Virus record (IMG/VR): IMGVR_UViG_3300021091_000002
Source: an uncultured virus (IMG/VR IMGVR_UViG_3300021091_000002)
Taxonomy: Duplodnaviria; Heunggongvirae; Uroviricota; Caudoviricetes
Strand: one strand, 5' to 3'
DNA length: 64,000 bases
Positions 9,273 through 29,327 of this stretch are shown in pieces. How positions within the stretch are numbered: the stretch's first letter is position 1; each line of letters begins with the position of its first letter. A model generated the notes under the pieces. That model worked only from the letters and a program-made list of their open reading frames with translations, was not told the origin of the DNA and searched no databases. Both the position numbers and the translations under genes were made by a program.

Positions 9273-9791
9273 TTAACCAAACATAATGTCGCCGTACATA
9301 GCGTACTGCCAGAACAGGTCCTGGCTTTCGCTGTCCACGTCGTCTTCTATTACGTCTTTAAGCAAAGTTTGAGCCCAAACTTGATCCACGGGCAAAGACT
9401 TTAAAACTTCGATAATGTCTGGAACACTGAAAGTTTTGGTTACTTCGAAACGGGAAACGTGCCCCAACTTGCTTATAGCACGCGCCTCAATCTGACGGAC
9501 GCGCTCGCGGGTGAGATTGAATTGCTTGCCCACTTCCTCGAGGGTGCGGGGTTCGCCCCGATCGAGGCCGAAGCGAAGTTTCATGATCTCGCGCTCGAAC
9601 TCGTCGAGAGTGTTTTCTGGGTCAACCATAGTAATAGTTATGAGGCCATCTTGTCTTTCAACGCGATTAACCCAACTATACCAAGCATTGCCGGTTAACA
9701 TGTCAAAAACTTCGTTTTCATCCAAAGTTAATGTTGTTGGCAACAACAGTGTAAACATGTGTTTTTTTGTTTTCATTTTCATTTGAGTCAC
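9273..9791 (-). CDS. phage protein carrying an internal sigma-70 region 4 HTH
   Basis: [50 protein letters not shown]. Confidence 0.85.
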
Positions 9792-16687: not shown

Positions 16688-17968
16688 TCATTCTGGTGCC
16701 AGAGGGTGCTCCACGTCGGGCACGGCGGGTTCTTCAGGCTGAGGCTCAAACTCAGCACGAAGCATGTCTTCGATGCCACGGTCCTTGATGATTTCGGATA
16801 CCACGATCTTCTCGTTTTGAGAGACGAACTGTCCCATGAACGCCCACAAGCTGAAGTCAACTCCAAGATGAACCAAGTCGCCTTCAAGCAACTGCAACGA
16901 TTTGGTACCGATTGGAGTGGTTATACTACGTTGTGCGCGAGCGTTACGCAATGCCTGACCAAGCAAACGTATAGCAGGAGACTTGATCAGTTTCTTTTCC
17001 ACTTCTTCATCGTAATTCCATTCCAACAACTTGAAGCGGTTGGCAAAGGCTTCGTTCGTCTTGGACATGCCAGCATAACCGGGATTCCATGAGGAAAGAA
17101 TCCACAAGTTTTTGTTGGCATGTACGATTTCGGGACGGAACGAACCCTCATGGGTTTCCACTCCAGTAACCGGATCGGTGAACACTCGTCCGTCCCACAC
17201 CGGCTTGCGGATGTTGACGAACTGGTGACGGTTGTCTAGCAACGGGTGGATCGCAGCGGTAACAGCACCGCTCATTGCGTTCACCTCGTCAAGGTACAAG
17301 ATACCGCCGATACGTACCGCTAAGGCAACAATGCCCTCCATCCACACCAACTGCTCCTGACCATTGGCAACCACTGGTCGGTACTGGCCAAAGAGGTCAT
17401 GGTCGGTGATTGCTGACGAACCGGCAAGAGTAAAAACCGGTAACGGTTTGCTAAGTCCCAACTGCTGTGCCACCTTGAATGCCATAACTTGAGTTAAGTA
17501 TGTCTTACCTGACTGAGTGTCGCCCACTAGGGCGATAGACACCGGATACCCGTCGTTCTCGTCACGACGATTGAAGTATTTCATCATCACGTCGATATCG
17601 GTGAGGTTTCCTGCAAGAGTACGGGATACGTAGTTCTTGGGGTCGATGTTCGGTCGGAACGGATCGAGCGCCGGATCATCCAACGACTCGATTCGCAGGT
17701 TGCTGACTATCACCGCGTGCTGGTGCTGAGGGACATTGGACGCGGCGGCGTTTGGGACGTTGGAACGTCCCAAGATAACAATGCCTTTGGGCAGTATCTC
17801 AACGACGCCCAGCATAGGCTCATCGAACGTCACTTCGATTTTGCTGCCGGGGCCACCAGGCACCAACGTTGCTCGGGTGATTGTTCCTTCGGCATTCTTG
17901 AACGGCGGGTACTTACCCATCACTCTCATGCCTTCTTTTAATTCTTTGGTACTTGCCATTCTTACCAT
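16688..17968 (-). CDS. MoxR/CbbQ/CobS-like AAA+ ATPase
   Basis: GDTQSGKT, LYLDEVN, NPGYAG...NEAFANRF. Confidence 0.88.
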   Translation of the reverse strand: MVRMASTKELKEGMRVMGKYPPFKNAEGTITRATLVPGGPGSKIEVTFDEPMLGVVEILPKGIVILGRSNVPNAAASNVPQHQHAVIVSNLRIESLDDPALDPFRPNIDPKNYVSRTLAGNLTDIDVMMKYFNRRDENDGYPVSIALVGDTQSGKTYLTQVMAFKVAQQLGLSKPLPVFTLAGSSAITDHDLFGQYRPVVANGQEQLVWMEGIVALAVRIGGILYLDEVNAMSGAVTAAIHPLLDNRHQFVNIRKPVWDGRVFTDPVTGVETHEGSFRPEIVHANKNLWILSSWNPGYAGMSKTNEAFANRFKLLEWNYDEEVEKKLIKSPAIRLLGQALRNARAQRSITTPIGTKSLQLLEGDLVHLGVDFSLWAFMGQFVSQNEKIVVSEIIKDRGIEDMLRAEFEPQPEEPAVPDVEHPLAPE

Positions 17969-18035: not shown

Positions 18036-18051
18036 TGTGACAGAAGTCACA
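18036..18051. promoter_or_regulatory. perfect CRP/GlxR-like palindrome upstream of the AAA ATPase operon
   Basis: TGTGA-cagaag-TCACA, intergenic. Confidence 0.55.
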
Positions 18052-20336: not shown

Positions 20337-20510
20337 CTAGTCGTCGTAACGGTTGCGCCATTCCTCGTAGTACCATTCCGTTATTTCCTTCACCCCAAAC
20401 GGGATAATGGAAGCAACGAAAAAGCCCAGAGAGAACAAACTCCAGTCCTCGTTGTATGACAGTAGAGCCAGTATAAAACTGGCTATGATCATCAACTCTG
20501 TTACTATCAT
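20337..20510 (-). CDS. small two-TM membrane protein (57 aa, not in the ORF track)
   Basis: MIVTELMIIASFILALLSY...FSLGFFVASIIPFG; SD AAGGAG, ATGA overlap. Confidence 0.65.
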   Translation of the reverse strand: MIVTELMIIASFILALLSYNEDWSLFSLGFFVASIIPFGVKEITEWYYEEWRNRYDD

Positions 20511-20674
20511 TGCTTCTCCTTTTTCCTGCGGCTAGCGGCTGCTGTCCGCTTTTCTTTTGCTTTTCCAACACACGCTGCACATGGTGCTGGGTTGTTCCAA
20601 ACCCTGTCACCGTACGGGTGGTCGACCTCGACGTGGTTTTCGTGACCACATCTGTAAATGCATACAAACTTCAT
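20507..20674 (-). CDS. small zinc-finger-like basic protein (55 aa, not in the ORF track)
   Basis: MKFVCIYRCGH...PCAAC; SD AAAGGAG. Confidence 0.7.
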   Translation of the reverse strand: MKFVCIYRCGHENHVEVDHPYGDRVWNNPAPCAACVGKAKEKRTAAASRRKKEKQ

Positions 20675-20701: not shown

Positions 20702-20839
20702 GGTTGTAACAGCGGGTTACCTTTCCCAGCGAGCAAGAGAAGACGGATAATGAACCAAACCGTCTTGTGCTGGTGATTTAACGCCATGATGTCGCAGGTT
20801 ACCCTTAACCCGGAAAGGACGGGGCTAGCTGTTACAACC
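20702..20839 (-). ncRNA. candidate structured RNA immediately 3' of tRNA-Arg
   Basis: perfect 12-bp terminal stem GGTTGTAACAGC/GCTGTTACAACC enclosing nested helices. Confidence 0.6.
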
Positions 20840-20841
20840 AG

Positions 20842-20914
20842 TGCATCAGGAAGGGGTCGAACCTACAACCTACAGATTAGAAATCTGTTGCTCTATCCAT
20901 TGAGCTACTGATGC
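20842..20914 (-). tRNA. tRNA-Arg (anticodon UCU), CCA not encoded
   Basis: GCATCAG/CTGATGC acceptor, D arm GCTC..GAGC, anticodon arm ACAGA-TTTCTAA-TCTGT, T loop TTCGACC. Confidence 0.93.
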
Positions 20915-21766
20915 ATGTCATCGGTGGGCACAACAAGCATGTGCGGGAAGTTCCTCGAACTACAGCCTACACTACCTAGGATGTGTACTGTATTCTTCTC
21001 AACTCTATGCAGCTTACAGTTGTTGATAATCCCATTGTTATCATGCCTATTGTAGGAAGCCATTTTCGCTTCATACATAATAGGGTTCGATGGTTACCTG
21101 CCCGACAACACACAGGTAATGGCTAGGTACTAGCAGCCACGACTAGGATGTGTAAACCCCACTTACGCCTGGGGGTACGGCGTTTTCGCGTTGGCTGTCT
21201 TTATATAGTACATCAGTCTACATTACTCATGGCCAACACTACACGAAGTAGCATGTTAGGATTCTCACCAAAGAGACTATACAGTCTGTTTGTATAGTGA
21301 TTTTGCTACTACATTTACCGTGATACTGCCCACGGCTGCAACCTGTGCAACATAGAAATAGGAAGCATTTGCACATGCTTTGGTTTATGAACCACTACCT
21401 GCCGGGATACACCCAATGCGTTTCTATTGCGCATCTGTACACTTGTAGTTCTGCAGAACTACGCACTGCGTCTAGTGCCTAGGTCGGCTGTACATCACCG
21501 CTTAGATCTTAGTCCTCTGCGAAATTTCTGCGATGCTCACTTCACTTGCTCCTTTTCTAATAATGCCCCACTCAAATATGGTGGAGTCAATGGTTGATAC
21601 AGCCAACAACGATCTTGCCAGTGCATGGATCAGCCAGTCTTGCAGGGGGTGAGACGGCGATCAACATACACTGGCTTATGCCGTATACAAGGCTATGTGC
21701 TGATAGCAACTACAAATGGGGGGTGAGTAGTGCTAAAGCAGACGTTGCACTCAGACAACCTGGCAC
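20915..21766. ncRNA. candidate large structured non-coding RNA (~850 nt)
   Basis: no convincing protein gene in an otherwise gene-dense genome; more than 15 short inverted repeats, nested long-range helices, pseudoknot and loop-loop complementarity. Confidence 0.55.
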
Positions 21767-21772
21767 AACGAA

Positions 21773-21873
21773 AGCATAGACCCATACATAGGCACAAGTT
21801 GTGACATTTGTCACATGATAGTGACAAGTGCCACATGGTGAGACATTTGTCACATGGTGAGACATTTGTCACA
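21773..21873 (-). promoter_or_regulatory. promoter with four tandem CRP-like boxes and -10 TATGCT
   Basis: TGTGAcatttgTCACA 21800-15, AGTGAcaagtgCCACA 21820-35, TGAGAcatttgTCACA 21839-54 and 21858-73. Confidence 0.7.
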
Positions 21874-22000
21874 CTAGGCACCTCGTACTGGACGTCGCAC
21901 CGTTTGCGACGCAAACCGGTCCAACCAGACGCAGGGAGCAGAGATGCCCCTCACACTAGGCTGGGTATGGCAGGGCAGATTTCTCAGCCGGATTTCGGGC

Positions 22001-22036
22001 AAAGAAGAAAGCCCCCCACCCTTGCGGGCGGGGGGC
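22001..22036 (-). terminator. intrinsic terminator after the 183-aa gene
   Basis: GCCCCCCGCCC-GCAA-GGGTGGGGGGC followed by TTTCTTCTTT on the minus strand. Confidence 0.9.
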
Positions 22037-22053: not shown

Positions 22054-22605
22054 TCAGAGGCTCTTGGAGAGAGCCACGACCAACGCTACCAGTTGCTGCT
22101 GAGCAACTGTCCGCTGATCGGCGGGTGTGGTCACCAATGCCAACTGGCAGGCTGCGAGTTGGCTGGTGGCACGCTCTGTGGCTATCCGCACTTCACGCTG
22201 TGCGGGGGTCTCTCCGTTGTTGGATTGACCCTCGGTCAGCCGTGCCCACGCTGCGTTCTGGTCTTGTGCCCCTGCGAGCAACGCCCTCAGAACGTCCGCG
22301 GACTTCTTGGAAGCCAAGAGCCGGTTCCAAACCGTCTGCCCCGCTTTCGCGGAGCCGACCGCCGGAAGGCTGAAGAAGAGTCCCCAAACGATGAGGATTC
22401 CCTCCCAGCCCGCGGGTAGCGTGTTGGCGGTGTACGCCTTAGCGATGACGTCCCCGATTTCCCTGCGGATTTCGGTCTCCTTGAGAGCCGCAATAGCGGG
22501 GGCGGAGGGACGCAAGTCGTCCCACGCTGCTTTCGCGGTTGCCTTGGAGTTGGACGCTGTGGCATCTGCCAAGAGCGTTTGCCTGACTGTGTCTAACACC
22601 GACAT
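22054..22605 (-). CDS. Ala-rich helical hypothetical protein in a GC-rich segment
   Basis: SD AAGGAG, followed by its own terminator. Confidence 0.8.
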   Translation of the reverse strand: MSVLDTVRQTLLADATASNSKATAKAAWDDLRPSAPAIAALKETEIRREIGDVIAKAYTANTLPAGWEGILIVWGLFFSLPAVGSAKAGQTVWNRLLASKKSADVLRALLAGAQDQNAAWARLTEGQSNNGETPAQREVRIATERATSQLAACQLALVTTPADQRTVAQQQLVALVVALSKSL

Positions 22606-22806
22606 GTTGTCTCCTTGTCGTAATGCCGGCGCTTGTCGCCGGTCATGCCATCGTTATGGGGGCGACCGGAAAGCGTCCTCGGTAGGGCCCAGCCCCCAAT
22701 GATCACCCCACTACGCAATAGCCCTATTCTAAATGGGGGGTTACCCGTGGGTAACTGGGCACCTGGGTATAGGGTAATATAGACCTATACACAAGAAGGT
22801 TAACAC

Positions 22807-29236: not shown

Positions 29237-29310
29237 GCCGGATGGTGCGTCCGGTTGACGCAAGGTGTCTTATAAACACCCGTAGACGGGTTCAACTCCC
29301 GTATCCGGCA
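29237..29310 (+). tRNA. tRNA-Ile (anticodon UAU), CCA not encoded
   Basis: GCCGGAT/ATCCGGC acceptor, anticodon arm GGTGT-CTTATAA-ACACC, T arm ACGGG-TTCAACT-CCCGT. Confidence 0.85.
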
Positions 29311-29327
29311 CTGTTATAATTGATAAC

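Follow-up and report, generated by a model that had tools for sequence, protein, structure and literature searches.

Two separately conserved RNA modules, apparently joined by a deletion, at the predicted front of a phage tRNA operon

We analyzed a 64,000-nt stretch of DNA from an uncultured phage (hereafter, the window). Judged from related phages, its positions 20915-21766 are two separately conserved RNA modules joined by a deletion, an upstream one (hereafter, block A, 21557-21766) and a longer downstream one (hereafter, block B, 20922-21500), both on the minus strand. Our preferred reading, to which we give a probability of about 0.55, is that the region is the non-coding front of a minus-strand phage tRNA operon and that B is a processed, stable, stand-alone RNA resembling GOLLD and ROOL. 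Such a role for B was rated the most likely one, and a cis-acting spacer or leader is its main rival. Few non-coding RNAs of bacteria and phages are both large and intricately folded.

A gene-free region beside tRNA-Arg

Pfam matches in the window show a myovirus-like phage contig with tail sheath, baseplate hub, portal, terminase and capsid genes, and further domains on the contig include a helicase, an AAA ATPase and a protein with sigma-70 region 4. Genes lie on the minus strand for ~7.9-22.6 kb and on the plus strand from 22.8 kb onward, and all genes flanking 20915-21766 share the minus strand with a tRNA-Arg gene (anticodon UCU, 20841-20914, 70.8 bits in Rfam and also called by ARAGORN). 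The upstream neighbor of the region is an array of palindromes (21793-21875), preceded by a gene of 183 aa (22054-22605, minus strand). An intrinsic terminator with an 11-bp G+C stem and a T run (22011-22036, minus strand) ends this gene and marks the start of the unit, and it is also kept in the related locus L003. From the array down to a 55-aa ORF (20507-20674, minus strand), ~1.1 kb is gene-free. The tRNA-Arg gene sits 7 nt past the closing helix of B and 1 nt before that of a further element (hereafter, element C). It was the only tRNA detected here by ARAGORN and the Rfam models, with no tRNA, tRNA-like or tmRNA element inside A or B. The phage has a second tRNA gene, for tRNA-Ile (anticodon TAT, 29237-29311, plus strand), among its plus-strand genes.

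The initial annotation had found no convincing protein gene in the region, and this was borne out: the longest ORFs touching it have 61, 57 and 56 aa, and in block B three-base periodicity is absent and nine of ten indels break the frame. The flanking proteins and those of the cassette described below matched no Pfam or PHROG family, and a DNA search of cultured phages gave matches only at the tRNA level. In a protein search with the ATPase, the matches were to actinophages, at no more than 30% identity.

Relatives split the region into two blocks

Relatives were sought by exact-word scans of IMG/VR and JGI metagenomes, which recovered B in three lineages only. These are the window's own lineage (L020 and L022, identical to the window over block B), the L003 type (L003, identical to L033, with L023 and L025) and the L006 type (L006, identical to L008 and L027, with the partial L009/L031). 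Seven of the 14 metagenome loci, L010, L013 and 11 of the 21 loci of one viral scan were set aside as chance matches. Scans of prokaryote genomes gave no match, and thus yielded no prophage and no clue to the host.

Both other lineages are interrupted at window positions ~21517-21550, where an insert of 777 nt (L006) or about 1180 nt (L003) separates A from B. This cassette contains one or two small ORFs, a tRNA-Met (CAU) and another small ORF, and one of its ORFs is common to the L003 and L006 types (43% identity). The window has what appears to be a deletion scar instead (21502-21556, minus strand), consisting of a ribosome-binding site (21549-21556) and the remnant of an ORF of 12 codons (21502-21540), the start of which resembles the N-terminus of the relatives' 92/122-aa protein. 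The junction of A, scar and B recurs in two independent metagenome contigs, L020 (99.9% identity) and L022 (100%).

A scan for the neighboring ATPase gene (30 loci) revealed a sister clade with ~78% ATPase identity. Its loci have the palindrome array, a homologue of A, an ORF, tRNA-Met, two ORFs, a non-coding stretch and tRNA-Arg, a shared layout indicating that the cassette is ancestral and was lost in the window's lineage. The proposal of one giant RNA unit in the initial annotation therefore has to be given up, as all relatives have 0.8-1.2 kb of sequence, including ORFs and tRNA-Met, between A and B, and the supposed 850-nt RNA is block A, a scar and block B.

Two small features mark the edge of B. 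L023 carries a 15-nt tandem duplication (GGACTCTAGATCTTA, twice; L023:1080-1110) exactly between the stop codon of the small ORF and the first helix of B, and an AGATCT palindrome is kept in all lineages at this small-ORF/B boundary.

Block B as a structured non-coding RNA

Block B measures about 580-590 nt in the window; its counterparts in relatives have 524-529 nt. It is closed by the pairing of CGGTG (21496-21500) with CACCG (20922-20926), 7 nt before the tRNA, and RNAalifold, covariation, shuffles and codon tests together describe it as a multi-helix RNA of ~24 helices. The 5' domain (21308-21500) is highly conserved. The 3' part is variable; it contains covarying hairpins and two insertions found only in the window. 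With 78.9% identity to L003, where the coding DNA downstream has 67%, the 5' domain is the best conserved DNA nearby, and a run of 21 nt in B is invariant across all three lineages.

Codon tests gave no coding signal. Mismatches in B are spread evenly over the codon positions (41/38/43, p=0.86), as opposed to 45/22/82 in the 183-aa gene (p=1e-8), and of ten indels that separate the window from L006, nine have a length not divisible by 3. Each frame holds 5-16 stop codons, and the longest frame (59-84 codons) lies on different strands in different lineages. When TAG is read as sense, a plus-strand frame at 20915-21506 stays open for 197 codons in the window's phage only; the equivalent run in L006 covers 76 codons, and that in L003 covers 154 and lies on the other strand. 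A TAG-readthrough gene across B was rejected, as the frame is not kept in relatives and reflects the many CTAG words. At the invariant 5' end of B is a mini-ORF, MYSRPRH (21478-21500, minus strand), which has 7 codons in both the window and L006 and runs to 16 in L003. It shows no synonymous change, which argues for a constraint at the level of RNA and not of coding.

RNAalifold on five distinct sequences from the three lineages gave a consensus of 135 pairs. Covariation, which the initial annotation had named as a check, was found in this consensus, with 37 of the pairs changed on both sides in a compensatory manner, across three lineages only. Shuffling the partners gave 17.8 +/- 2.7 double-change pairs, with none of 500 shuffles reaching 37, and slid partners gave 1-10; likewise, 92% of the cells were paired, against 31-44% with slid partners. 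Ten helices have at least two covarying pairs. A candidate H-type pseudoknot (21345-21380, minus strand) combines stem 1 (21376-21380/21363-21367) and stem 2 (21369-21374/21345-21350), with compensatory changes in one and two pairs, respectively. The terminal helix and helix 2, which define B as one domain, never vary and so lie outside the reach of the covariation test.

The consensus structure was derived from the same sequences as the covariation counts, and from three lineages only, so that the double-change counts are inflated. We therefore added a test with the structure predicted from the window sequence alone. Of the substituted pairs, 31 of 52 were still canonical in the comparison with L006 and 36 of 81 in that with L003, compared with 26/75, 20/65, 18/57 and 18/80 in coding controls, meaning that base pairs in B survive substitution about twice as often. 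The column-shuffle z of B was -7.16 and that of a clean coding control -2.51. A control region containing element C reached z -6.48, with 20 of 134 double-change pairs by RNAalifold, which makes the proportion in B an enrichment and not a proof.

Single sequences also folded better than shuffles. The z of the minimum free energy was -3.71 for block B (0 of 100 shuffles as low), -4.04 for block A (0 of 200) and -4.25 for element C (0 of 200), and two coding controls of 592 nt gave -1.94 and +1.22. Taken with the conserved fold, the compensatory changes and the preference for one strand described below, these results indicate that B is a structured non-coding RNA, as seen in three lineages.

They also bear on the idea that B is former coding sequence, left decaying by the deletion, with hairpins formed by chance. 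The 12-codon remnant between A and B and the confinement of B to one small clade would suit such decay. B is equally gene-free, however, in relatives that kept the cassette, its compensatory changes and pair retention exceed those of the coding controls, and its fold z is better than theirs, all of which make decay very unlikely.

Most of the individual helices that the initial annotation had listed were recovered. Seven of the ten match the comparative consensus (21094/21113, 21248/21304, 21318/21331, 21344/21369, 21445/21455, 21618/21669 and 21704/21731) and a further one (21190/21232) is shared by two lineages but not the third; of the remainder, 21276/21291 is inside an insertion private to the window's phage, and 21122/21130 found no support in the consensus. 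Two other reported features are exact in the window and, by alignment, absent from the relatives: a 10-bp long-range pair (20935-20944/21371-21380) and a 12-nt direct repeat (20976 and 21143), for which none of 100 shuffles gave two matches.

B did not pair significantly with the rest of the window, where the best complementarity was 14 nt (E 0.17). A complementarity of 11 nt between A and B weakens in relatives, by eye, and was taken as chance. When B, the tRNA and C were folded jointly, all pairs stayed within their own domain (135 B-B, 21 tRNA-tRNA and 38 C-C pairs, none cross-domain), indicating a modular structure.

Consensus folding favors the minus strand

The consensus fold energy is lower for the sense strand (minus) than for the antisense in all three elements, at -105.99 vs -82.46 kcal/mol for B, -61.21 vs -42.10 kcal/mol for A and -46.96 vs -41.22 kcal/mol for C. 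Several hairpins switch G-C or A-U pairs to or from G-U on the minus strand. A point against this strand is that single-sequence folding of the whole 852 nt is no better there than on the plus strand: it beats shuffles on both, as the initial annotation had suggested checking, with z -2.81 (minus) and -3.38 (plus) from 20 shuffles each. The same annotation had leaned to the minus strand on account of the promoter and tRNA and had left the choice undecided; the lean stands, and the consensus energies of A, B and C now decide in its favor.

Block A and the putative promoter

Block A (21557-21766, minus strand) is a predicted structured leader RNA of ~210 nt, based on its minimum free energy, RNAalifold and nhmmer. 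Its identity is 87% with L006 and 82% with L003, and it is conserved in two phage clades, with nhmmer matches to five sister-clade loci (E 2.4e-9 to 2.6e-6). Its parts are a hairpin with a conserved C-rich loop of 13 nt, a long irregular hairpin of ~25 bp and a terminal hairpin. The base of the long hairpin covaries between the clades (GCCAGTG/CACTGGC vs GTCAGTG/CACTGAC). RNAalifold on four sequences gave 69 pairs, only four of them compensatory because the sequence varies little, and the column-shuffle z was -7.96 sense and -2.85 antisense.

A comes directly after the putative promoter whatever follows it, be it an ORF (most relatives), tRNA-Met (L040) or B (the window). As A is retained where the next ORF is gone, in the window and L040, it is not merely the translational leader of that ORF.

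Upstream of A, the array (21793-21875) has three copies of a 25-nt unit with TGTGAC-N4-GTCACA palindromes, one perfect (21800-21815) and two with one mismatch each (21839-21854 and 21858-21873), plus a degenerate copy near 21819-21835. It is kept in all relatives and in the sister clade. Over the whole window the motif is no more frequent than by chance (4 found, 3.3 expected); its clustering and conservation are what stand out. A putative -10 hexamer, TATGCT (21773-21778, minus strand), was read from the sequence and is invariant among the aligned relatives. With a start near 21766, it would occupy -12 to -7, and the last palindrome would be centered 41.5 bp upstream, so we infer a promoter here. 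Of the earlier statement that the region is bounded by a dedicated promoter array and tRNA-Arg, the array and the tRNA-Arg are real, and the promoter part was not matched by a consensus sigma-70 scan, which called none on the minus strand here.

The arrangement recalls class II promoters that depend on CRP/FNR-type activators, in which the consensus TGTGA-N6-TCACA is centered at -41.5. The promoter-proximal palindrome fits this motif exactly and has the same distance from the predicted start. The phage differs in having several tandem sites and not one.

Other sequences may belong to the same regulation. A further perfect TGTGAC-N4-GTCACA lies at 18036-18051, upstream of the AAA-ATPase gene (16688-17968, minus strand), and phage promoters that carry this motif may be regulated together. 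Upstream of the array, at 21885-21935, nested inverted repeats (CTGGACG...CGTCCAG) surround TTTGCGTCGCAAA; the relatives keep this block, the sister clade retains it in part, and it could be another protein-binding site. The protein with sigma-70 region 4 (172 aa, 9273-9791, minus strand, E 1.7e-16) is a possible sigma-like or anti-sigma factor of the phage, recognizing the unusual promoter of the operon.

The palindromes could also be initiator sites, with the region acting at the level of DNA as a replication origin or packaging region and its hairpins forming in single-stranded DNA. The array has the form for this, with 3-4 palindromes spaced by about 19-20 bp, and it is near the switch of gene orientation (~22600-22800), which coincides with the minimum of the cumulative GC skew. 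We consider such a DNA element improbable, however, because G-U pairs favor one strand (-106 vs -82 kcal/mol), the lone palindrome at the ATPase gene is placed as a promoter or operator motif would be, and relatives tolerate 0.8-1.2 kb of genes between A and B.

Element C and a different RNA in the sister clade

On the other side of tRNA-Arg is element C (20702-20839, minus strand), a predicted three-way-junction RNA of 138 nt with a perfect 12-bp closing helix (12 of 12 complementary). This helix has compensatory changes across all three lineages, and the alifold z was -13.03. Element C ends at the ribosome-binding site of the 55-aa ORF, which encodes a Cys-rich protein, and had no match in Rfam. 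The sister clade is without C, and its next ORF starts 18-20 nt after the tRNA.

The sister clade also has a different sequence in the slot that B takes before tRNA-Arg. This conserved stretch of ~415 nt (hereafter, B') is found at L041:3877-4291 and L047:4073-4494, and in the same place in L040, L042, L043 and L045. Its consensus has 86 pairs, 16 of them compensatory, including a covarying A/U-rich hairpin that abuts the 5' end of tRNA-Arg, and no Rfam match was obtained. A search of the sister clade for B by nhmmer found none at E<=0.01, and a covariance model of the B 5' domain (R1) scored nothing above 9.2 bits there with filters default or off, so homology of B and B' was rejected. Both clades thus have a long structured RNA in this slot, though not the same one.

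A proposed single transcript punctuated by tRNA-Arg

We propose that an operator-controlled promoter with a start near 21766 would give a single transcript, on which A, the scar, B, tRNA-Arg, C and then the small ORFs would follow one another. A scan reported no terminator-like site on the minus strand from 21766 to 20841, and the intrinsic terminator precedes the array. The tRNA would serve as punctuation, with a cut by RNase P at 20914/20915 making the 3' end of B, 7 nt behind its closing helix, and 3' processing of the tRNA releasing C together with the downstream mRNA. B would then persist during infection as a compact, stable RNA, possibly acting in trans, like GOLLD and ROOL and without belonging to them. 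With the cassette lost, A, scar and B would stay one molecule of ~850 nt in the window's phage; in the relatives, A and B would be separate products, B together with the preceding small ORF.

Processing of polycistronic transcripts at tRNAs that punctuate them is known, and so is the making of a 3' end by RNase P at a tRNA-like element (MALAT1/mascRNA). Block B resembles these cases in ending a few nt before a tRNA, with a terminal helix at that end, and because it stops there, the cut that matures the 5' end of the tRNA would also set the 3' end of B. Established cases are organellar, from bacterial rRNA/tRNA operons or eukaryotic, whereas that of B is predicted from sequence.

The same arrangement could mean that A, B and C are only the cis-acting leader, spacer and trailer of a precursor, steering read-through, tRNA maturation, and mRNA stability or translation. 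We regard this as possible, though clearly less probable than a stand-alone B. All three elements lie within one predicted transcription unit in which the scan reported no internal terminator-like site, A is right after the putative promoter regardless of what comes next, and C stops at the ribosome-binding site of the next ORF. Leaders for processive antitermination sit directly after the promoter, as A would. The presence of a different B' at the same site fits a role set by position and structure over sequence. On the other hand, the 5' domain of B is more conserved than the flanking genes and has the invariant 21-nt run, which exceeds what a spacer needs, and ~580 nt with 24 helices are far beyond the needs of known tRNA leaders. 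If B were only a processed spacer, the operon would have an ordinary, though unusually elaborate, tRNA leader.

For the preferred reading of B as a processed, stable RNA, the natural variants provide ready comparisons that bear on whether processing at the tRNA makes the ends of the RNA, with the cassette present or deleted, B or B' in the slot, and a tRNA sandwiched between self-contained domains.

Comparison with known large RNA families

Rfam models gave only the tRNA in the window at the gathering threshold, and again only the tRNA, with no GOLLD or ROOL, at E<=10 with relaxed filters on 1501 nt or 611 nt; the relatives had no GOLLD or ROOL at E<=0.1, and they and the sister-clade loci likewise gave only tRNAs. 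The "Plastid-ycf2 5'UTR" model matched the antisense of every phage tRNA at 34-49 bits (gathering score 65.7) and was rejected as a model artefact. Membership of GOLLD, ROOL, OLE, HEARO, tmRNA or the intron families, as the initial annotation had considered, thus gained no Rfam match even at E<=10, and B, failing the family models, is not a member of GOLLD or ROOL. Its alternative, a class analogous to these, keeps its footing, as B is structured, non-coding, phage-borne and beside a tRNA. A limited literature search found no published description of block B.

GOLLD and ROOL are described as RNAs of phages or prophages, often near tRNA islands, and the function of such large RNA classes, which have unprecedented architectures such as RNA-only cages, is unknown (10.1101/2024.12.08.627333, PMC5737381). 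Many GOLLD members exceed 800 nt (10.1101/2024.12.08.627333, PMC5737381), and ROOL (Rumen-Originating, Ornate, Large) is given a mean length of 581 nt (PMC5737381).

That B, or A and B together, is a very divergent GOLLD or ROOL missed by the Rfam models is hardly credible to us. Its size (524-590 nt, against the 581 nt quoted for ROOL in PMC5737381) and its place in a phage beside tRNAs, with tRNA-Met between A and B in relatives, would fit such an origin, but none of the Rfam searches above returned either family, in the window at E<=10 or in the relatives at E<=0.1.

ROOL and B are alike in length and in occurring in phages next to tRNA genes, and neither is known to have a protein partner or a function. 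Like ROOL, B is predicted to be rich in helices, and its consensus has several multistem junctions and one candidate pseudoknot, although three lineages cannot fix its full architecture; three pseudoknots are reported for ROOL. ROOL is also described from several phyla, whereas B is from three metagenomic phage lineages.

GOLLD, as portrayed in the same material, shares with B a phage location beside tRNAs, being phage-borne and near tRNA islands. It has two domains of unequal conservation, with phage tRNAs sometimes in the linker, an arrangement that can be likened to A and B flanking tRNA-Met in the relatives and to B and C flanking tRNA-Arg. The differences are that the 3' region is the conserved one in that account of GOLLD, whereas here the 5' module A is the most widely conserved, and that the relatives carry protein genes between A and B.

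It is a tentative and rather doubtful step further that B, with ~580 nt, at least 20 helices and a pseudoknot, founds a new class of large phage RNA, made by processing at a tRNA and acting in the manner of GOLLD or ROOL as a stand-alone, possibly self-assembling RNA particle tied to phage tRNA function, with A and C as new motifs and B' as an independent analogue. If this is true, an RNA of similar size to GOLLD and ROOL, unrelated to them and yet in the same niche, would lend weight to the view that phages combine tRNAs and large structured RNAs to a shared end.
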